Source: Escherichia phage PHB12 | DNA: 64,000 nt | Sequence record: MK524178.1 | Strand: one strand, 5' to 3' | Shown here: piece after piece, positions 10,864-21,378 of the stretch | Position numbering within the stretch: position 1 is the first letter of the stretch | How the letters are laid out: every line of letters begins with the position of its first letter | Notes under the pieces: generated by a model | Database searches by the model: none | The model's input: only the letters and a program-made list of their open reading frames with translations | What the model was told of the DNA's origin: nothing | Program-made: the position numbers and the translations under genes

Positions 10864-10871
10864 TATAAATA
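10864..10871 (+). promoter_or_regulatory. T4-type late promoter (TATAAATA) for gene 34
   Basis: Exact TATAAATA about 35 nt upstream of gene 34 ATG in the rnh/34 divergent intergenic region. Confidence 0.7.
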
Positions 10872-10905: not shown

Positions 10906-13900
10906 ATGGTTGACATCAAACGTAAGTTCAGGGCCGAAGATGGTCTTGACGCAGGCGGTGATAAGATAGTTAACGTTGCGCTTGCTGACCGCACAGTTGG
11001 CACCGATGGCGTGAACGTTGACTTTTTGGTGCAAGAAAACACCGTACAGAATTATGACGAGACGCGCGCGTATACAAAAGATTTTATTGTTCTTTATGAT
11101 AATCGTTTTTATCAAGCTTTAAGCGATATTCCAGCTCCGGCAGGCCCTTTCTCTTTGGCTAAATGGAAGGCAACTCGTACAGATGCAGAATGGATTACAG
11201 TTCAAGGCGGAGATTTCCAATTATCAGTAGGTAACTCTATTGCGGTTGATACTTCAGCTGGCACTGATATTAATTTCACTTTGCCTCAAAATCCTTTAGA
11301 TGGCGATACAGTTATTTTGTCTGATATTGGCGGTAGAGTAGGCTATGTAAAAGTTCAAATTACTGCAGCGGCTCAAAGTATTGTAAACTTTAGAGGACAA
11401 CAGGTTCGTTCAGTTTTAATGACGCACCCAAAATCTAAAATGGTCTTCATTTTTAGCAACCGCCTATGGCAAATGTATGTTTCTGATTACGAACGTAATG
11501 CAGTCACAGTAACTCCTGCTGCGCCATATCAAGCGCAACCTAATGATTTTATCATTCGACGTTTTACATCAGCCGCTCCTATTAATATTACATTGCCTCG
11601 TAATGCTAATAATGGCGATATTATTAATTTAGTGGATTTGGACAAATTAAACCCATTATATCACACAATTGTCAAAACTTACGATGATACAACTTCTATA
11701 CGAGAAGCTGGTGTTCATGTAGCAGAAGGACGTAATACTGCGGAAGCATTCTTTGTTTATGATTCTGCCAATAGTTTATGGCGTGTTTGGGAAGGTGACC
11801 AGAAATCTCGTTTACGTATAGTTCGTAATGATACTGATTTACGCCCTAATGAAGAAGTTCTTGTTTTTGGAACTAATAATGATACAATCTCGACGGTAAA
11901 TCTTACTTTGCCTACAGATATTTTGTCTGGCGATACTGTTAAAATATCGTTGAATTATATGCGTAAAGGGCAAACTGTAAAAATTAAAGCTGCTGAAGGC
12001 GATACAATTGCTAGCAGTATTTCTTTATTACAGTTCCCAAAACGTTCGGAGTATCCACCTGATGCACAATGGGTTTCTGTTAGTGAGCTAGAATTTAATG
12101 GTGATACTTCGTATGTACCTGTACTTGAGTTAGCTTATATAGAAGATTATTCATCTGAAACAAAATATTGGGTAGTTCAACAAAACACCGTAACCGTCGA
12201 ACGAGTCGATGCATCGAGCAATACCACTCGAGCTCGTTTAGGTGTTATTGCTCTTGCTTCTCAAGCGCAAGCAAATGTCGATTTAGAAAATGCTCCTGGT
12301 AAAGAACTGGCTATTACTCCGGAAACATTAGCAAATCGTACAGCAACTGAAACTCGTCGTGGTATTGCTCGTATTGCAACAACTGCACAAGTTAACCAGA
12401 ATACCGATTTTGCATTCCAAGACGACTTGATTATTTCTCCTAAGAAATTGAACGAACGTACAGCAACTGAAACCCGTAGAGGTGTTGCTGAAGTTGCAAC
12501 TCAGGCTGAAACTAATGCTGGAACAGATGACACCACTATTATTACTCCTAAGAAATTGGATGGCCGTCAAGGTTCTGAAGTTTTATCTGGTATTGTAAAA
12601 TACACATCTACGACTGGTACTACAGCGGCTACTGTTCGTGGTAATGCTGGGACTAACGTTTATAACAAAGCCGTAGATAATTTAACTATTTCTCCAAAGG
12701 CTCTTGACCAGTATAAAGCTACCCCTACTCAGCAGGGTGCAGTAATTCTTGCTATTGAAAGTGAAGTTATCGCTGGCGAATCACAAGCTGGTTGGGCTAA
12801 TGCTGTAGTGACCCCTGAAACTCTGCATAAGAAAACTTCTACTGATGGACGTATTGGTTTAATTGAAATTGCTACGCAAGCAGAAACTAACACTGGAACT
12901 GATTATACTAGAGCAGTAACGCCTAAGACGTTAAATGATAGGAAAGCTACGGAAGGATTATCTGGCATAGCCGAAATTGCTACGCAAGTTGAATTTGATA
13001 CTGGAACTGATGATACTCGTATCTCGACTCCACTGAAAATTAAAACTCATTTTGATTCTTCTGACCGTACCAGTGTTAATTCTGATTCCGGACTTATTGA
13101 AGAAGGAACCTTGTGGAACCATTATACTCTTGATATTTCTAAAGCAAATGAAACACAACGTGGTACACTTCGCGTAGCTACTCAGGCAGAATCTAATGCC
13201 GGAACTTTAGATGATGTTCTTATTACTCCTAAAAAACTTTTAGGGACTAAGTCCACTGAAACGTCTGAAGGCGTGATTAAGGTTGCTACTCAGGCTGAAA
13301 CTGTAACAGGAACTTCTGCTAATACTGCTGTATCACCTAAGAATTTAAAATGGATTGTCCAGAATGAACCAACATGGGCTGCTACTACGGCAATTCGTGG
13401 ATTCGTTAAAACTTCATCTGGTTCTATTACATTCGTTGGTGACGATACTCAAGGTAGTACCCAGGACCTGAATCTTTACGAGAAAAATAGTTATGCTATT
13501 TCTCCATATGAATTAAACCGTGTACTTGCTAACTATTTGCCATTGAAAGCTAAAGCCGTAGATAGTAATCTGTTAGATGGTCTAGATTCTCTTCAGTTCA
13601 TCCGTAGAGACATCGACCAGACGGTTAATGGTTCTTTAAGTCTTACTAAACAGACCAACCTGAGTGCTCCTTTAGTATCTACAAGCACTGCTTCTTTTGG
13701 TTCCGAAGCATCTGTTACTCGTAGATTAACTCTTAATGACTCTAGTGGTTCCGAAATAGTTTTCACTAAAGGAACTCAATCTCTTAGTAATAAAGAGAAT
13801 TTCGTTGTTAGAGCATGGGGTAATAGCGCTACAGATGGTGCCCGTGATACAGTATTTGAAGCGGGTGACGAAACCGGATACCATTTCTATTCTCAGCGCG

Positions 13901-14739
13901 CTTCTGATAATAAAGTATCATTTAATATTAATGGAACACTTTATTCAACAGGCATTGTTTCTACAAATGGATTAAACGTTACAGGTTTTTCTACCTTTAC
14001 CGGGCCTATTAGTGCTACAGGCGAAATTGTTTCTAGTTCTCCTATTGCATTCAGAGCTATTAACGGTAACTATGGTGTTATGCTTTATAACGCTGGTAAC
14101 AGTTCTTATATTGCATTAACTAACTCAGGTGACCAGACCGGGACGTTTAATAACTTACGCCCGATCACGATTAACAACGCCACAGGCTTAGTTCGTCTTG
14201 ACAATGGTGTTCAAATCACAAGTGGTGCAACAATAACTACCGGTGGGTTAACTGTAAATAACAGGATTATTTCTAACGGCGTTAAAACTGCCACGGTTTA
14301 TACCGATAAACCAACAGCTTCTACTGTAGGTTTTTGGTCTATTGACATTAACGATTCTGCCGTATATAGCCAATTCCCTGGATACTGGACGCGTGATAAC
14401 AAAGGTAACCGTGACCAAGAAATTAAATATCCTGGTACTTTGACTCAATTCGGTAATAGCTTAGATTCGCTTTATCAGGATTGGATTTGTTATCCTACAG
14501 GTGCAAATGGCGGTAGTATTCGTTATACTCGTACCTGGCAGAAAAATAAAGATGCTTGGACTTCATTTGCAATGGTATTTGATAGTGGCAACCCACCTTC
14601 ACCTAGCGATGTCGGTGCTATCCCGTCTGATAATGCTGTTATTGGAAACCTTACTATTCGAGACTTCTTACAATTAGGAAATGTGAGAATTGTTCCGGAC
14701 CCGGTTAACAAAACAGTTAAATTTATATGGGTTGAATAA
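10906..14739 (+). CDS. 34: Long tail fibre proximal subunit gp34
   Basis: 1277 aa; internal repeated motifs (TATETRRGIARIATTAQV, IATQAETNTG...) typical of phage fibre repeats; position and size as T4 gp34. Confidence 0.95.
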   Translation: MVDIKRKFRAEDGLDAGGDKIVNVALADRTVGTDGVNVDFLVQENTVQNYDETRAYTKDFIVLYDNRFYQALSDIPAPAGPFSLAKWKATRTDAEWITVQGGDFQLSVGNSIAVDTSAGTDINFTLPQNPLDGDTVILSDIGGRVGYVKVQITAAAQSIVNFRGQQVRSVLMTHPKSKMVFIFSNRLWQMYVSDYERNAVTVTPAAPYQAQPNDFIIRRFTSAAPINITLPRNANNGDIINLVDLDKLNPLYHTIVKTYDDTTSIREAGVHVAEGRNTAEAFFVYDSANSLWRVWEGDQKSRLRIVRNDTDLRPNEEVLVFGTNNDTISTVNLTLPTDILSGDTVKISLNYMRKGQTVKIKAAEGDTIASSISLLQFPKRSEYPPDAQWVSVSELEFNGDTSYVPVLELAYIEDYSSETKYWVVQQNTVTVERVDASSNTTRARLGVIALASQAQANVDLENAPGKELAITPETLANRTATETRRGIARIATTAQVNQNTDFAFQDDLIISPKKLNERTATETRRGVAEVATQAETNAGTDDTTIITPKKLDGRQGSEVLSGIVKYTSTTGTTAATVRGNAGTNVYNKAVDNLTISPKALDQYKATPTQQGAVILAIESEVIAGESQAGWANAVVTPETLHKKTSTDGRIGLIEIATQAETNTGTDYTRAVTPKTLNDRKATEGLSGIAEIATQVEFDTGTDDTRISTPLKIKTHFDSSDRTSVNSDSGLIEEGTLWNHYTLDISKANETQRGTLRVATQAESNAGTLDDVLITPKKLLGTKSTETSEGVIKVATQAETVTGTSANTAVSPKNLKWIVQNEPTWAATTAIRGFVKTSSGSITFVGDDTQGSTQDLNLYEKNSYAISPYELNRVLANYLPLKAKAVDSNLLDGLDSLQFIRRDIDQTVNGSLSLTKQTNLSAPLVSTSTASFGSEASVTRRLTLNDSSGSEIVFTKGTQSLSNKENFVVRAWGNSATDGARDTVFEAGDETGYHFYSQRASDNKVSFNINGTLYSTGIVSTNGLNVTGFSTFTGPISATGEIVSSSPIAFRAINGNYGVMLYNAGNSSYIALTNSGDQTGTFNNLRPITINNATGLVRLDNGVQITSGATITTGGLTVNNRIISNGVKTATVYTDKPTASTVGFWSIDINDSAVYSQFPGYWTRDNKGNRDQEIKYPGTLTQFGNSLDSLYQDWICYPTGANGGSIRYTRTWQKNKDAWTSFAMVFDSGNPPSPSDVGAIPSDNAVIGNLTIRDFLQLGNVRIVPDPVNKTVKFIWVE

Positions 14740-14747
14740 GAGGTTAT

Positions 14748-15872
14748 ATGGAAAAATTTATGGCAAGGTTTGGACAGGGATACGTCCAAACGCCGTTTTT
14801 ATCGGAAAGCAATTCAGTTAGATTTAAGCTAAGTATAGCGGGTTCATGCCCGCTTTCAACAACTAATCCGTATATTTTGTTCCAAAACGAGCCTTTAGGG
14901 TTGCAGTCTTTTGGTATTGGGCTAAATGTTAGGGTGATAAATCCGGAAAATGGAACTATAGTTGATAGTAAATTATACAATTTTGCGCCTACAAATAATG
15001 CGACTTCAGCTGCATTTATTTCGTTTGTTAATACATACGCGGATAATTTCATTTTCGCATTTATTTCTAATAACAAATTTAATTTGCCGCCAGAAATAAT
15101 TGAATGGTTTAAAGCTGCTGGGAGTTCAGTTATACCGTCAATTGAAGTTGCTAGTCTTGTTGATATTTCATATTCAGCGTTTTATGTTTCAGGTAAAAAT
15201 ACTATTGCATTAGAACACATAAAATACAGTAATAAGAAAACAATTTCTGATTACGCAACTCCATTAGATATTGTATATGACTCTATTGCTGATATAGGTG
15301 CTACCGGCTATCCTAGACGTACATATGAAGCTCTAGAAACGTTTTTATCTCCTGTTGGAAGAACTAACAATGAAATAAAAAGGATGCCTACATCATCCCT
15401 TGTTACTCCTATCGCAAACTATGGATTAAAGCCTACTGATTTTCTTTATTTGAAATTTCAATTAATGGCTGATGAAGAATTATTAGAGGAAGGAACCACA
15501 AGACTTTCAATTCGTTTCTTTAAGTCTCCATCTAGCTCTCCTATATCATCTAAAGATATAAACTTTGATGGAACTGCCGGGGAGTGGAAGCTATATGAAG
15601 AATACGTTGAAATACCAGCTGAAGCTGATGGCTTTACAGTATATTGTTACCGTACGGCCCCAGTCGGTCAAGGTGGACTAAGAAATGTTATTTTCACTGA
15701 AGTATCATGTAACGGAAGTATAGCAAAACCCGCCGAGTTTGGTATAAACGGTATTCGTGTTAATTACATTGATGAATCATTAACAGGTAATGATATAATG
15801 GACTTGCCTACTCAGTTATCTAACGACACAGGTAAGGTATTTGGGCAGGAATTTAAAGAGTACACAGAATAA
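14748..15872 (+). CDS. 35: Long tail fibre hinge connector gp35
   Basis: 374 aa ORF immediately after gene 34; T4 synteny and size. Confidence 0.9.
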   Translation: MEKFMARFGQGYVQTPFLSESNSVRFKLSIAGSCPLSTTNPYILFQNEPLGLQSFGIGLNVRVINPENGTIVDSKLYNFAPTNNATSAAFISFVNTYADNFIFAFISNNKFNLPPEIIEWFKAAGSSVIPSIEVASLVDISYSAFYVSGKNTIALEHIKYSNKKTISDYATPLDIVYDSIADIGATGYPRRTYEALETFLSPVGRTNNEIKRMPTSSLVTPIANYGLKPTDFLYLKFQLMADEELLEEGTTRLSIRFFKSPSSSPISSKDINFDGTAGEWKLYEEYVEIPAEADGFTVYCYRTAPVGQGGLRNVIFTEVSCNGSIAKPAEFGINGIRVNYIDESLTGNDIMDLPTQLSNDTGKVFGQEFKEYTE

Positions 15873-15890
15873 AGGAGACTTCGGTCTCCT
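15873..15890 (+). terminator. UUCG-tetraloop hairpin after gene 35 (AGGAGAC-UUCG-GUCUCCU) followed by UUUUCG
   Basis: Perfect 7-bp stem with UUCG loop directly after gene 35 stop, followed by T-run. Confidence 0.55.
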
Positions 15891-15897
15891 TTTCGCG

Positions 15898-15905
15898 TAT
15901 AAATA
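15898..15905 (+). promoter_or_regulatory. T4-type late promoter (TATAAATA) for gene 36
   Basis: Exact TATAAATA 27 nt upstream of gene 36 ATG. Confidence 0.7.
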
Positions 15906-15931: not shown

Positions 15932-16588
15932 ATGGCCGATTTAAAAGCCGGAAGTACAGTTGGTGGTTCCGTCATATGGCATCAAGGCAATTTTCCTTTA
16001 ATGCCAGCTGGCGATGACATCCTATATAAAACATTTAAATTATACACCGAATATAACAAGCCAAAAGCGGCTGATAACGATTTCGTATCTAAAGCAAATG
16101 GTGGGACATATCTCAAAAAGGTAATCTTTAACGAAGGTGTTGCAGTCAAAACAGCAGATGACCAAACGAATGGTATTTTTTCTGGTGGTGGTGACGCCGC
16201 GACATTCGACCAAACAAACATGGATATTGTTTCGTGGTATGGTATTGGGTTTAAATCATCTCAAGGTACAGGTGAAAGAACTGTTGTAATTGATACTCGC
16301 ACCGGTAATATAAGTTCTAAAGGCGTTATTGAAGCATCTCAATTCAGAGCCACAACGTTAGCACCTTTAAATAATTACGACCTTACTCGCAAAGATTATG
16401 TTGATAGTCAAATAAATACAGTTAATGCTAATGCAAACAGTCGTGTACTCCGTTCAGGAGATACGATGACCGGTGCGCTAACCGCCCCAAACTTTTTCTC
16501 ACAGAATCCTGCATCTCAACCCTCGCATGTTCCACGATTTGACCAAATTGTTATTAAGGATTCTGTTCAAGATTTCGGCTATTATTAA
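15932..16588 (+). CDS. 36: Long tail fibre distal connector gp36
   Basis: 218 aa; MADLKAGSTVGGSVIWHQGNFPLMPAGDD; synteny 35-36-37. Confidence 0.9.
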   Translation: MADLKAGSTVGGSVIWHQGNFPLMPAGDDILYKTFKLYTEYNKPKAADNDFVSKANGGTYLKKVIFNEGVAVKTADDQTNGIFSGGGDAATFDQTNMDIVSWYGIGFKSSQGTGERTVVIDTRTGNISSKGVIEASQFRATTLAPLNNYDLTRKDYVDSQINTVNANANSRVLRSGDTMTGALTAPNFFSQNPASQPSHVPRFDQIVIKDSVQDFGYY

Positions 16589-16596
16589 GAGGACTT

Positions 16597-19500
16597 ATGG
16601 CTACTTTAAAACAAATACAATTTAAAAGAAGCAAAACTGCAGGAGCACGTCCTGCCGCTTCAGTATTAGCCGAAGGTGAATTGGCTATAAATTTAAAAGA
16701 CCGCGTACTTTTTACTAAAGATGACCAAGGAAATATCATTGATCTGGGTTTTGCTAAAGGCGGTAGCATTGACGGGAATGTTATTCATATAGGAAATTAT
16801 AATCAAACTGGTGATTATACTTTAAATGGCACTTTCACTCAGACAGGTAATTTTAATTTAACTGGTATTGCTCGAGTAACTCGTGATATTATTGCCGCCG
16901 GGCAGATTATGACTGAAGGCGGTGAACTTATTACAAAAAGTTCAGGTACAGCACATGTTCGTTTTTTCGATGGCAATAGCCGCGAACGTGGCATTATCTT
17001 TTCGCCAAATAATGCTGGAGCGACCACTCAGGTAGTTAATATTCGCGTACAAGATTATGCCGCTGATAGCGAAAGCATTTATGCGTTTTCAGGCAACGGT
17101 GTATTTTCTTCACCTGAAGTATCGGCACGGAAATCTATTTCGTCTCCACAAATTCTGACCGATAAAGTTATTACAGATGGGAAGAAGACGGGCGATTATG
17201 ATATATCTTCATTATCAAATAACACTCCATTGGCAGAAAGCGAAACGGCTATTAACCACCTCCGTGTTATGCGAAATGCTGTAGGAGCAGGTATTTTCCA
17301 CGAAGTTAATGTTAATGACGGAATAACCTGGTATTCCGGAGATGGACTTGACACTTATCTTTGGTCGTTTAACTGGGCCGGTGGATTGAAAGCCGGTCAT
17401 TCTATTTCTGTAGGTCTTCCAGGCGGCCCTAAAGGATATTCTGAGTTAGGAACGGCCTCAATTGCTCTTGGTGATAATGATACCGGATTAAAATGGTATC
17501 AAGATGGTTATTTCTATGTAGTAAACAATGGTACGAGAACTTTCCTTTATAGTCCTGAATCAACCGTAAGCCTTAGAAAAATGGTTATGGGTTATTCTGT
17601 AAATGGCAATGATTTGACTACTCCTCCGACTGAAAACTATGCTTTGGCTACTGTTGTTACTTACCATGATAATAATGCGTATGGTGACGGTCAGACTCTT
17701 TTAGGATATTACCAAGGCGGTAATTATCATCACTATTTCCGTGGTAAAGGTACTACAAATATTAATACTCACGGCGGTTTATTAGTCACTCCTGGTAATA
17801 TTGACGTTATTGGTGGTTCTGTTAATATTGATGGTCGTAATAATGCTTCTACGCTGATGTTTAGAGGTAACACAACTGGTAGCAGTTCAGTTGATAATAT
17901 GACTATCAACGTTTGGGGTAACACCTTTAGTACAGTAGATGGTTTTCGTAAAAACGTGATGGAAATATCTGATGCTATTGGTTGGATGCATTATATTCAG
18001 CGCAATAAAGATAATACCATTGAGGCTGTATTAAATGGACAACAAACTATTAACGAAAATCTTGTTGTTAAAAAAGATATTTTGGTTGATAGAGCGGTCC
18101 ATACCGCAGGCGAAATTACTACAAGTGCTGTTAACGGGCTCCGCATCTGGAACAACGATTATGGCGCCATTTTTAGACGTTCGGAAGGAAGTCTTCATAT
18201 TATTCCTACTGCATTCGGTGAAGGCATGTCCGGTGATATTGGCCCACTTCGCCCGTTTAGTTTGGCTTTAGATACTGGTAAAGTTACTATTCCAGATTTA
18301 CAATCAAGTTACAATACGTTTGCTGCTAACGGTTATATTAAATTTGTTGGTCATGGAGCGGGTGCCGGTGGATATGATATTCAATATGCCCAAGCGGCTC
18401 CTATTTTCCAGGAAATTGATGATGATGCTATAAGCAAATATTATCCTATTGTTAAACAGAAGTTTTTAAACGGTAAATCCGTTTGGTCTTTAGGTACTGA
18501 AATTAATTCGGGTACATTTGTTTTACACCATATCAAAGAAGATGGATCACAAGGACATACATCTCGTTTTAATCAAGACGGTACTGTTAACTTCCCGGAT
18601 AACGTTCTGGTCGGCGGTGGCGAAGCTGCTATTGCTCGTAATGGTAATATTTTCTCGGATATCTGGAAAACGTTTACTTCAGCAGGAGACATTACAAATA
18701 TTCGCGATGCAATAGCTACTCGTGTTGCTAAAGAAGGCGATACGATGACCGGCACTCTTTGGATTAATAAAGATGCTGCTGGAATAGTTCTTAATCCTCC
18801 TTTGTCTAGTGATTCATCATTTATTCGTTCTGATACGGCCGGGGCCAATAATTGGTATATTGGTAAAGGCGGTGCCGACAATGGTCTAGGTTTTTACAGT
18901 TACATTACACAAGGCGGTGTATACATAACAAATACCGGTGAAATATCGCTTTCTCCTCAAGGACAAGGAACATTTAATTTTAATAGAGACCGCCTTTATA
19001 TAAATGCTAGTCAATGGGTTGCACATAAATCTGGCGCTTGGGGCGACCAATGGGGCTTAGAAGCTCCTATATTTGTGGATTTTGGTGGTGTCGGTAATGA
19101 TAGTTATTATCCGATTATCAAAGGAAAATCTGGTATTACCAATGAAGGATATATATCGGGTGTAGATTTCGGTATGCGTCGTATTACTAATACATGGGCC
19201 CAAGCTATTATCCGTGTTGGTAACCAGGAAAGCGAGTCGAACCCGCAAGCTATCTATGAATTCCACTCTAATGGCACTTTTTATGCTCCGAGCTTACTTA
19301 AGAGTAACAGAGTATCGGCTGGTGGTGGTGACCCAGCATGGGGCAGTCCTTGTATTGTATTAGGTGACAATGATACCGGATTTCTTTGGGAAGCAGATGG
19401 TATTTTCAACGCATATGCAAACGGCCAAGGCGTATTCAGTTTTAGAGCTGGTCTCGCACAAACGTTCGGTAACGTTAACTTCCACTGTAACGCCGGTATG

Positions 19501-19863
19501 TATGTTCGTGATAACATTGATGTTAACGATGTTTATATCCGTTCTGATATTCGTTGTAAGTCAGAAATTAAGCTTATTAAGAACGCTCAAGAGAAATCTA
19601 AACTCTTAGGCGGCTATACTTATCTGCTTAAAAACCCTGTTACAGACGAAGTTAAACCGTCTGCAGGTTTAATTGCTCAGGAAGTTCAAGAAATATTGCC
19701 TGAACTTGTTTCTGAAGATAAAGAGACCGGCTTACTTCGTTTAAACTATAACGGTATTATCGGTTTAAATACTGCTACTATCAACGAGCATACTGACGAA
19801 ATCAAGGAATTGAAATCTGAAATTGCTGAATTGAAAGCATTAATTAAATCATTGATAAAATAA
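16597..19863 (+). CDS. 37: Long tail fibre distal subunit gp37 with C-terminal intramolecular chaperone domain
   Basis: 1088 aa; C-terminus (LGGYTYLLKNP...GLIAQEVQEILPELVS...LNYNGIIGLNTATINEH) resembles the self-cleaving chaperone of T2-type fibres; followed by gp38 adhesin. Confidence 0.95.
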   Translation: MATLKQIQFKRSKTAGARPAASVLAEGELAINLKDRVLFTKDDQGNIIDLGFAKGGSIDGNVIHIGNYNQTGDYTLNGTFTQTGNFNLTGIARVTRDIIAAGQIMTEGGELITKSSGTAHVRFFDGNSRERGIIFSPNNAGATTQVVNIRVQDYAADSESIYAFSGNGVFSSPEVSARKSISSPQILTDKVITDGKKTGDYDISSLSNNTPLAESETAINHLRVMRNAVGAGIFHEVNVNDGITWYSGDGLDTYLWSFNWAGGLKAGHSISVGLPGGPKGYSELGTASIALGDNDTGLKWYQDGYFYVVNNGTRTFLYSPESTVSLRKMVMGYSVNGNDLTTPPTENYALATVVTYHDNNAYGDGQTLLGYYQGGNYHHYFRGKGTTNINTHGGLLVTPGNIDVIGGSVNIDGRNNASTLMFRGNTTGSSSVDNMTINVWGNTFSTVDGFRKNVMEISDAIGWMHYIQRNKDNTIEAVLNGQQTINENLVVKKDILVDRAVHTAGEITTSAVNGLRIWNNDYGAIFRRSEGSLHIIPTAFGEGMSGDIGPLRPFSLALDTGKVTIPDLQSSYNTFAANGYIKFVGHGAGAGGYDIQYAQAAPIFQEIDDDAISKYYPIVKQKFLNGKSVWSLGTEINSGTFVLHHIKEDGSQGHTSRFNQDGTVNFPDNVLVGGGEAAIARNGNIFSDIWKTFTSAGDITNIRDAIATRVAKEGDTMTGTLWINKDAAGIVLNPPLSSDSSFIRSDTAGANNWYIGKGGADNGLGFYSYITQGGVYITNTGEISLSPQGQGTFNFNRDRLYINASQWVAHKSGAWGDQWGLEAPIFVDFGGVGNDSYYPIIKGKSGITNEGYISGVDFGMRRITNTWAQAIIRVGNQESESNPQAIYEFHSNGTFYAPSLLKSNRVSAGGGDPAWGSPCIVLGDNDTGFLWEADGIFNAYANGQGVFSFRAGLAQTFGNVNFHCNAGMYVRDNIDVNDVYIRSDIRCKSEIKLIKNAQEKSKLLGGYTYLLKNPVTDEVKPSAGLIAQEVQEILPELVSEDKETGLLRLNYNGIIGLNTATINEHTDEIKELKSEIAELKALIKSLIK

Positions 19864-19868
19864 TAAAA

Positions 19869-19882
19869 GGGCCTTCGGGCCC
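19869..19882 (+). other. GGGCC-UUCG-GGCCC hairpin between genes 37 and 38
   Basis: Perfect 5-bp GC stem with UUCG loop; no T-run, so more likely an RNA stability or processing element than a terminator. Confidence 0.45.
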
Positions 19883-19893
19883 TGGAGGTTTAT

Positions 19894-20673
19894 ATGGCAG
19901 TAGTAGGAATCCCTGGTTGGATTGGGACCTCAGCCGTTGCTGAAACGGGTCAAAGATGGATGACGGCTGCTTCAAGGGAACTTCGTTTAGGAAACCCTTC
20001 ATGGATGTCCCAATTCGCGGGCCGTTCAAGAGAAATAATTCATACACTTGGTGCAGACCATAACTTTAACGGACAATGGTTCCGTGACCGTTGCTTTGAA
20101 GCTGGCGGCGCTCCTATAGTGTTTAATATCACCGGAAATTTGGTATCATATAGTAAAGATGTTCCATTATTCTTTATGTATGGCGATACACCAAATGAAT
20201 ATGTTACTTTGAATATTCATGGTGGAGTTCATATGTGGGGACGAGGTGGTAACGGTACTGTAAACGGAAACCCAGGCACAAATGGCGGCGATGTAATCCA
20301 AAATGATATCGGCGGAAGACTTCGTATTTGGAACTATGGCGTTATTGCATCAGGCGGTGGCGGTGGTGGTGCAGTGTCATTACAGAATAGCTGGGCGCCA
20401 AATGCTACAGCAGGTGGCGGTGGTGGTAGACCATTTGGCATCGGCGGAGGTGGCGTTAATTGGCCAGGTGGTAATGCTAGTTATGACGCCCCGGGCGGTG
20501 CCGGTTACACTTCCCAATTCGGCGGAGGCAATGGCGGTGATGCTGGCGCTTGGGGCGGAGATGGATGGGGTAATCACTTATCTAGATCTGGCGGTGGTGC
20601 TCCTGGCAGAGCAGTATTCGGAAGTTCACCGTCATGGGGTGCTACAGGCACAATCTACGGCTCCTGGATTTAA
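19894..20673 (+). CDS. 38: Receptor-recognising tail fibre adhesin gp38 (T2-type, Gly-rich loops)
   Basis: 259 aa; multiple poly-Gly segments ([31 protein letters not shown]) encoded by GGN repeats; position after gene 37. Confidence 0.9.
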
Positions 20674-20691
20674 ACGATAATACCTCTCAAT

Positions 20692-20699
20692 TATAAATA
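20692..20699 (+). promoter_or_regulatory. T4-type late promoter (TATAAATA) for holin gene t
   Basis: Exact TATAAATA about 20 nt upstream of t start, followed by SD GGGAGGT. Confidence 0.7.
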
Positions 20700-20718
20700 T
20701 TGATAAATGGGAGGTAAT

Positions 20719-21378
20719 ATGGCAGCACCAAAAGTATCATTTTCGCCTAGTGATATTTTATTTGGGTTGCTAGACCGCATTTTCAAAGATAACGCCTCTG
20801 GAAATATTCTTATTTCAAGAGTTGCTGTTGTAGTTCTTTTGTTCCTAATGGCACTAATATGGTACAAAGGGAATATTTTTATGGATTATTACGTGAGGTC
20901 GAAATATGATACTTACACAGAAGTAATTCAAAAAGAAAGAAATACACGATTTGAATCTGCGGCTTTAGAACAACTACAAATAGTCCACGTCACATCAAGG
21001 GCGGATTTTAGTTCGGTGTATTCTTTCAGACCTAAAAATCTAAATTATTTCGTCGACCTTATTGCGTATGAAGGTAAGTTACCTAGCACAGTAACTGAAA
21101 AATCTATGGGAGGATTTCCTGTTGATAAAACGACAGCAGAATATTCGGTCCATTTAAGTGGACTTCACTTTACTTCTAAAACAGATTTTGCTTTCTTACC
21201 TACCAAATCAAAAACTCCGGAACTGGCGTATATGTATAGTTGTCCTTACTTCAATTTGGATAACATATATGCTGGAACTGTTTCTATGTATTGGTATAAG
21301 GGGTCGGATGTGTTAAATGAAGAACGCTTGGCTGCAATATGCAACCAAGCAGCAAGGATATTAGGGCGGGCTAAATAA
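20719..21378 (+). CDS. t: Holin
   Basis: Start at ATG 20719 (MAAPKVSFSPSDILFGLLDRIFKDNASG...) matches T4 holin T; single N-terminal TM segment; about 219 aa. Confidence 0.9.
   Translation: MAAPKVSFSPSDILFGLLDRIFKDNASGNILISRVAVVVLLFLMALIWYKGNIFMDYYVRSKYDTYTEVIQKERNTRFESAALEQLQIVHVTSRADFSSVYSFRPKNLNYFVDLIAYEGKLPSTVTEKSMGGFPVDKTTAEYSVHLSGLHFTSKTDFAFLPTKSKTPELAYMYSCPYFNLDNIYAGTVSMYWYKGSDVLNEERLAAICNQAARILGRAK

Follow-up and report, generated by a model that had tools for sequence, protein, structure and literature searches.

Our analysis of a 64,000-nt window of Escherichia phage PHB12 (sequence record MK524178.1; positions are counted from the first letter of this stretch) concerns the genes of the long tail fibre proteins gp37 and gp38, located at 16597-20673. 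The region very probably encodes the distal, host-recognising end of a T-even long tail fibre, in which a self-cleaving gp37 is capped by a gp38 adhesin of the OmpF class. This reading is carried by the gene order, the domain membership of both proteins, the conservation of their motifs, the near-identity of gp38 to adhesins with known receptors and the absence of a T4-type tip or chaperone, all of which are directly observed. An earlier note, made from the letters without database searches, had proposed a T2-type host-range module at this position, and the open reading frame (ORF) map reproduced its coordinates and sizes for gp37 and gp38 exactly. The two genes and their parts are the following.

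16597-19863, plus strand: gp37, long tail fibre distal subunit of T2/RB69 type, 1088 aa (full-length match to phrog_1699, 1283 bits)
16700-19335, plus strand: mosaic shaft of gp37 (sliding-window identities and segment searches)
19336-19542, plus strand: distal tip of gp37, aa 914-982, ending in DVYIR (homology to the crystallised tip of S16 gp37)
19540-19545, plus strand: predicted autocleavage site between R982 and S983 of gp37 (homology to the S16 site)
19543-19863, plus strand: intramolecular chaperone of gp37 (Peptidase_S74), aa 983-1088, 106 aa (Pfam PF13884)
19894-20673, plus strand: gp38, monomeric tail-fibre tip adhesin, 259 aa (Pfam GP38 and Gp38_N, phrog_2056, PDB 9V85 and 6F45_D)
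19894-20028, plus strand: N-terminal attachment domain of gp38, aa 1-45, T2/T6-like subtype (Gp38_N; W9, W22 and W37)
20239-20607, plus strand: array of Gly motifs and hypervariable segments of gp38, aa 116-238 (invariant Gly columns and codons)

Comparative searches placed gp38 among the T-even adhesins. The Pfam family GP38 (PF05268) covers aa 47-259 along the entire profile (positions 1-218 of 218; E=7e-83, 278.2 bits, cutoff 25), Gp38_N (PF21721) covers aa 1-42 (E=8e-21, 74.2 bits, cutoff 25), and phrog_2056, described as 'tail fiber protein; host specificity', matches with E=3.8e-109. In the PDB, gp38 matched the receptor-binding domain of PP01 gp38 (9V85, E=7.5e-73) and the S16 adhesin (6F45_D, E=1e-48). 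Alignment with the adhesins of RB69, T6 and T2, which had been named in the earlier note as a check on its proposal, gave 90%, 67% and 52% identity, respectively, with the Gly motifs invariant; identity to the reference adhesins of Bas47 and S16 was 99% and 50%. The T4 gp38 chaperone, which the same note had set against the adhesin as the alternative homologue, showed no similarity to gp38 (the best BLASTP hit spans 14 residues with E=2.1).

The N-terminal domain of gp38 carries the Trp 'prongs' W9, W22 and W37, which are invariant in the six aligned adhesins (window, T2, T6, RB69, S16 and Bas47). In the S16 structure the three Trp residues of this domain plug into the tip of the gp37 trimer (PMC6851490). 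Downstream of it, gp38 is Gly-rich with GGN-coded tracts that flank variable segments, as had been noticed from the letters, and the run positions, codons and alignments agree on this point; the pattern cannot be put down to chance. Glycine accounts for 24.7% of gp38 and for 34% of aa 111-259, against 7-12% of gp34, gp36 and gp37. The runs comprise G6 at aa 154-159 (20353-20370), G5 at 174-178, G4 at 184-187 and two G3 runs at aa 210-212 and 233-235. Every codon in these runs is GGT, GGC or GGA, and the local GC content over the Gly region is therefore raised (0.51 versus approximately 0.38 around it). The Gly columns G116-G121, G128, G131-132, G154-159, G174-178, G182, G185, G201, G212-215, G218, G221 and G234-238 do not vary among six to seven adhesins, whose intervening segments differ from phage to phage in both sequence and length. 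Since the Gly motifs are retained and gp38 is homologous to 9V85 (about 65-70% identity) and 6F45_D, these motifs would be expected to form a polyglycine-II sandwich within a beta-helical fold. A polyglycine-II lattice of Gly motifs has been described for S16 (PMC6851490) and for PP01 gp38.

The distal end of gp37 is likewise of the kind that carries a gp38 adhesin. Its last 175 residues (aa 914-1088) match the S16 gp37 tip (PDB 6F45_A, phmmer E=4.5e-30), and the part ending in DVYIR is predicted to be the docking face for gp38. Similarity to T4 gp37 in BLASTP (34% identity over aa 1-685 of the window protein) ends at T4 aa 788 and thus breaks off where the T4 receptor-binding needle starts. 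Beyond aa 685 no significant BLASTP match to T4 gp37 was obtained, nor was there any C-terminal homology to T4 gp37 aa 785-1026, and a PDB search with gp37 returned 6F45_A only and no T4 tip structure. Judged by these comparisons, the needle/tip domain of T4 is absent from gp37. Together with the dissimilarity of gp38 to T4 gp38, this bears out the proposal that the phage uses the gp38-adhesin mode rather than recognition by a T4-type gp37 tip.

The C-terminus of gp37 scores 44.5 bits (cutoff 22; E=1.9e-11) against Pfam PF13884 (Peptidase_S74, 'chaperone of endosialidase'), the match covering aa 983-1038 and profile positions 1-57 of 58. The domain has the S983/K988 dyad as well as a heptad-like helix at its C-terminal end, EIKELKSEIAELKALIKSLIK, and is 93-99% identical at the nucleotide level to its relatives in sliding-window comparison. 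Ser and Lys constitute the catalytic dyad of S74 domains, as established in work on endosialidases. The motif itself, S983-D-I-R-C-K988, is preceded by DVNDVYIR; a single S-D-x-R-x-K motif lies 99-113 residues from the C-terminus of gp37 in the window, Bas47, OLB35, RB69, T2, T6 and S16, and the gp37 alignment with T2, T6, RB69, S16 and Bas47 shows no variation at its S, D, R or K. Neither the motif nor the S74 domain was found in T4 gp37. Processing of T2 gp37 is said to have been described by Drexler, Riede and Henning in 1986. The S983 motif aligns with the S16 cleavage site DLNVS^SDRRIKK (the caret marks the cut), where the last 113 residues of S16 gp37 are autocleaved between the two serines, exposing the docking face for gp38 (PMC7917993). 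The context DVYIR^SD is common to the window, T2, T6 and the fPS phages, and in the latter it is predicted to be cleaved as in S16 (PMC7917993). C-terminal processing has been reported for T2 and T6, with T2 gp37 capped by its gp38 adhesin (PMC3157838). Because SDIRCK aligns with the S16 site and the DVYIR^SD context recurs, gp37 is predicted to be cleaved between R982 and S983 with release of a 106-aa fragment. The self-cleaving chaperone domain claimed from the letters was thus recovered as an S74 match with an SDxRxK motif, as in T2, T6, RB69 and S16 and not as in T4, the cleavage itself being a prediction.

The Gly motifs and predicted beta-helix of gp38 are colinear with those of PP01, and the five receptor loops A-E of PP01 gp38 (9V85) could therefore be mapped onto gp38 of the window as predicted loops.

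20257-20274, plus strand: predicted receptor loop A, aa 122-127, TVNGNP (PP01 loop A, W119-I124)
20380-20409, plus strand: predicted receptor loop B, aa 163-172 (PP01 loop B, Q161-V170)
20449-20463, plus strand: predicted receptor loop C, aa 186-190, GGVNW (PP01 loop C)
20506-20520, plus strand: predicted receptor loop D, aa 205-209, YTSQF, with Q208 (PP01 mapping and RB51 comparison)
20560-20586, plus strand: predicted receptor loop E, aa 223-231, DGWGNHLSR (PP01 loop E)

In each of the five predicted loops the window has the sequence of RB69 and RB51. Over aa 47-259 gp38 differs from RB51 at five residues (I48V, G72S, N82D, A219G and W220R), none of which falls in a mapped loop, and the whole protein is 98.8% identical to gp38 of Bas47 (AlbertHofmann), with three substitutions (A54T, I183L and A219G). 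The adhesins of fPS-2, fPS-90 and FL33 are 92-94% identical. Q208 (codon CAA, 20515-20517) is equivalent to RB51 Q206 and lies in an identical local context. The receptors of these relatives have been studied: ompF dependence of Bas47 was shown by knockout and complemented (PMC8594841), RB69 and RB51 require OmpF (PMC3157838), fPS-2 and fPS-90 use OmpF plus lipopolysaccharide (LPS) (PMC7917993), and FL31 and FL33 use OmpF. In RB51 gp38, the substitution Q206L alone switches the receptor from OmpF to OmpW (bioRxiv 10.64898/2026.04.02.716166). Owing to the near-identity to adhesins of OmpF phages and the retention of Q208, OmpF is probably the primary receptor of the window phage.

Predicted loop B clearly resembles the T2 segment SLKNSYPTNGS, despite the overall identity of 52% and unlike the other loops. 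T2 can use OmpF besides FadL, and since its loop B is alike, this loop may contribute to OmpF recognition.

Several GenBank records call a nearly identical gene 'long tail fiber assembly chaperone' or 'distal long tail fiber assembly catalyst', which would make gp38 a T4-like helper of gp37 assembly located outside the virion and leave receptor recognition to the gp37 tip. We consider this highly improbable: the strong matches of gp38 are to the adhesin family and to adhesin structures and not to T4 gp38, gp37 has no T4 needle/tip domain on which such recognition could depend, and the chaperone and catalyst annotations are legacy name transfers from the unrelated gene 38 of T4. Scarcely more probable is the idea that the S74-like domain of gp37 is a degenerate, uncleaved remnant, so that gp38 binds elsewhere or the domain stays on the fibre. 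The residue before the serine is Arg in the window and Ser in S16, and cleavage in gp37 is predicted by homology, which leaves some room for this idea; however, the Pfam match begins at profile position 1 and scores well above the cutoff, all six phages compared have the Ser and the Lys (among them T2 and T6, whose processing has been reported), the DVYIR^SD context is that of T2, T6 and the fPS phages, and the domain as a whole is conserved.

It has also to be considered whether a T2-type adhesin might here recognise OmpW, OmpC, Tsx, FadL or OmpA as its primary receptor, owing to A219 and W220. The RB51 Q206L variant shows that small changes can have an effect, and both positions distinguish the window from RB51. 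Yet W220 is also found in the OmpF-dependent Bas47, positions 219-220 are situated between the predicted D and E loops, and the adhesins directed at Tsx, OmpA, OmpC or FadL have markedly different loops (identity 67% for T6, about 65-70% for PP01-like adhesins and 52% for T2). The five predicted loops match those of RB69 and RB51 instead, though Q208 is the only position with an experimental link to receptor choice. A receptor other than OmpF is thus unlikely. Several points nevertheless weigh against the overall interpretation. The cleavage of gp37, the location of gp38 in the virion and the use of the receptor are taken over from homologous phages, and the fold of gp38 from sequence identity. 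A219 is replaced by Gly in Bas47, RB51 and RB69 and is the main caveat to the OmpF assignment, W220 is replaced by Arg in RB51, and the receptor call is uncertain because, within this gp38 subtype, one substitution in a loop is known to be enough for a change of receptor. Moreover, RB69-type phages have been reported to need FhuA and a full LPS core in addition (PMC3157838), and a minor effect of TolC has been described for the FL phages; 'OmpF alone' may therefore be too simple.

For the self-cleaving gp37 capped by an OmpF-class adhesin, the following course of assembly and recognition can be proposed, in which we infer cleavage, docking, fold and receptor from related phages. Genes 36, 37 and 38 would be transcribed late as one unit. 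gp37 would trimerise into a beta-helical fibre, its own C-terminal 106-aa chaperone nucleating the folding, and after folding S983, aided by K988, would cut the R982-S983 bond in each chain. Departure of the chaperone would expose the flat hydrophobic gp37 tip ending in DVYIR, on which one gp38 monomer would dock by inserting W9, W22 and W37. The remainder of gp38 would be a beta-helix bearing the polyglycine-II sandwich of conserved Gly motifs, and its five variable loops would point distally to bind an outer-membrane receptor, most probably the porin OmpF.

A close counterpart is Bas47 (a Mosigvirus), which shares with the window the gp37 tip, the SDIRCK site, the 106-aa chaperone and the intergenic hairpin; its gp37 is just 86% identical to that of the window because the shaft is a different mosaic. 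The receptor-binding part of gp38 (aa ~49-259) is nearly identical in RB69, RB51 and RB68, of which RB68, the Q206L variant, is directed at OmpW. In RB69, however, the gp37 tip and chaperone differ from those of the window (48-79% nucleotide identity), as does the attachment subtype of gp38, and the window thus joins a T2/T6-like attachment domain with an RB69-type binding domain. The S16 complex of a gp37 trimer with gp38 (PDB 6F45) shares with the window the autocleaving chaperone, the three Trp prongs and the beta-helix, as well as the array of Gly motifs that forms a polyglycine-II sandwich with five distal loops, cleavage and fold in the window being predicted from sequence. The loops of S16 gp38 differ from those of the window, and its cleavage context is S^S in place of R^S. 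According to a reference title in PMC7917993, S16 recognises Salmonella OmpC.

PP01 gp38 (9V85) is the best match among solved structures and binds OmpC of E. coli O157, not OmpF; all five of its loops differ from those of the window in sequence and some in length. T2 shares the SDxRxK motif, the Gly motifs and a similar loop B, but its gp37 is 1341 aa long with a shaft unrelated to that of the window, and the BASEL study reports dependence of T2 on FadL (PMC8594841). T4 has the same gene order, a homologous N-terminal two-thirds of gp37 and, in the corresponding place between its genes 37 and 38, a hairpin; T4 differs in having the gp37 needle at aa 785-1026, in lacking the S74 domain and in its unrelated gp38.

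Sliding-window comparison revealed the locus to be a recombinational mosaic. Nucleotide identity to the Mosigvirus relatives Bas47, RB69 and NHEP11 is 99-100% in gp36, and identity to Mosigvirus relatives is again 99-100% in the receptor-binding part of gp38 and the holin gene; between approximately 16700 and 20060 no single comparator follows the window, identity ranging from 54 to 99%. The most divergent gp37 segment (about 17880-18150) is approximately 55-70% identical to nine comparators, the best match being IME540 with only 92%. gp37 also matches Pfam Gp34_trimer at aa 451-554 (17947-18258; E=2.6e-06, 28.3 bits, cutoff 27), and this match overlaps the stretch most divergent from all comparators.

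The visible junctions fall within the conserved start of gp37 (its first ~100 nt) and, in gp38, around aa ~46-80 of the conserved N-terminal third. The earlier note had suggested that GGN repeats promote recombinational host-range switching. Gly-motif repeats have indeed been described, on experimental grounds, as recombination sites (Tetart 1998; Trojet 2011, PMC3157838), so that the claim stands for the literature; at this locus the GGN tracts were rejected as junctions, since the visible breakpoints lie elsewhere. Local support for Gly motifs as crossover sites is confined to two observations. When the nucleotides are compared with T2 gene 38, the longest exact matches (14-15 nt) are located in the Gly motifs, and an exact direct repeat of 14-15 nt, GGTGGCGGTGGTGG(T), occurs at 20356-20370 and 20413-20427, 57 nt (19 codons) apart, bracketing the loop-B segment. 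If these repeats slipped or were exchanged unequally, the segment with loop B would be lost or duplicated in frame, and it is improbable that this acts as a rapid switch of host range.

Exchange of whole modules is evident from other phages. RB69 combines the window-type binding domain with a different attachment domain and gp37 tip, whereas bov9_1 and KMB39 combine the window-type attachment domain and a similar gp37 with a PP01-like binding domain. In the Tequatrovirus Bas38 (AugustSocin), compared with 19832-21378 of the window, gp38 and the holin are 97-100% identical and gp36 only about 75%, which points to a recent intergeneric transfer of the adhesin-holin block between Mosigvirus and Tequatrovirus. 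These exchanges are in keeping with Trojet et al. (PMC3157838), who noted that subtypes of the gp37 tip and of the gp38 N-domain pair in 'lock-and-key' fashion.

As a whole, the allele combination of the window, i.e., a T2/T6-like attachment domain with a matching gp37 tip, an RB69-type OmpF-binding domain with the uncommon A219 and a gp37 shaft at most 88.7% identical, had no match in the phage collection searched. It is doubtful that this combination confers a host range or co-receptor need unlike that of Bas47 or RB69. The literature already covers the architecture of the module, its structures, its processing and its receptor class, and the only new element in relation to this collection is the particular gp37 mosaic, which is expected for gene 37. 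The sequence allows the prediction that a PHB12-like Mosigvirus docks on E. coli via an OmpF-directed gp38; on this prediction, alterations of ompF, ompR or the LPS core should be the source of resistance, and replacing the one A at 20516 by T (Q208L) might redirect the phage to OmpW. Such a receptor prediction could be useful for phage cocktails and host-range engineering, although it is conceptually not new, and the locus offers a tidy example of fibre mosaicism with an adhesin and holin segment that is also present in a Tequatrovirus.

The surrounding locus has the canonical order gp34-gp35-gp36-gp37-gp38-t in the ORF map, with gp38 directly downstream of gene 37 (stop at 19863) and upstream of the holin gene t (start at 20719). 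The neighbouring genes and signals are listed below.

10906-14739, plus strand: gp34 (ORF map)
14748-15872, plus strand: gp35, proximal hinge connector (ORF map)
15898-15905, plus strand: T4-type late promoter TATAAATA, 27 nt upstream of gp36 (exact-motif scan)
15932-16588, plus strand: gp36, distal hinge connector onto which gp37 assembles (Pfam Phage_T4_gp36, E=1.3e-29)
19868-19883, plus strand: intercistronic hairpin AGGGCC-UUCG-GGCCCU between genes 37 and 38 (sequence; folding energy -12.3 kcal/mol)
20692-20699, plus strand: late promoter TATAAATA for holin gene t, the 3' boundary of the 36-37-38 unit (exact-motif scan)

In GenBank the two proteins correspond residue for residue to QBP05601.1 (gp37) and QBP05602.1 (gp38) of Escherichia phage PHB12, both labelled 'tail fibers protein', and a literature search for PHB12 gave only unrelated uses of the string. 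The protein cluster of gp38 has 123 members, while the best identity of gp37 to any other record in the phage collection is the 88.7% given above. The window phage is a T-even phage of Mosigvirus type and shares about 95% nucleotide identity over 25 kb with OLB35, Bas47 and Shf125875.

Exact TATAAATA motifs occur five times in the 64-kb window, a number not above chance, so that their assignment as promoters rests on position: the three on the plus strand, at 10864, 15898 and 20692, lie upstream of genes 34, 36 and t. This motif is known as the late promoter of T4. As no other late promoter lies between 15898 and 20692, genes 36, 37 and 38 would form one late transcription unit. Sigma-70-like sites were at chance level (21 found versus 17.5 expected) and terminator-like sites were few, and gene 38 probably has no internal promoter. 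The gp38 Shine-Dalgarno sequence GGAGG (19884-19888) comes directly after the hairpin that separates genes 37 and 38, and a hairpin is kept at this position in T2, T6, T4, RB69 and S16 via compensatory stem changes. It might serve as an mRNA stabiliser or as an antisense terminator, and could end antisense transcripts because a T-run follows on the minus strand. A second hairpin with a C(UUCG)G-type tetraloop is located between genes 35 and 36 (15871-15892).

Scans of the 64-kb window gave no tRNA genes and no Rfam match at the gathering threshold. Four further ORFs at the locus were rejected as genes, having no PHROG match: 20303-20680 (plus strand, 125 aa), 18573-18881 (minus strand), 19364-19609 (plus strand) and 19281-19517 (minus strand). 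The stop-poor GGN repeats best account for the 125-aa ORF, which would be their by-product. In gp35, aa 58-131 match the Pfam domain ILEI (interleukin-like EMT inducer/FAM3), a eukaryotic domain, with E=6.4e-07 and 30.2 bits, a score just above the Pfam threshold (cutoff 27). Finally, holin gene t begins at the ATG at 20707 in the program-made ORF map, but this ATG overlaps the GGAGG Shine-Dalgarno sequence of a second ATG at 20719 (20707-20721); the latter is likely the true start, because it gives a holin of 219 aa (660 nt) as annotated in Bas47 and OLB35.

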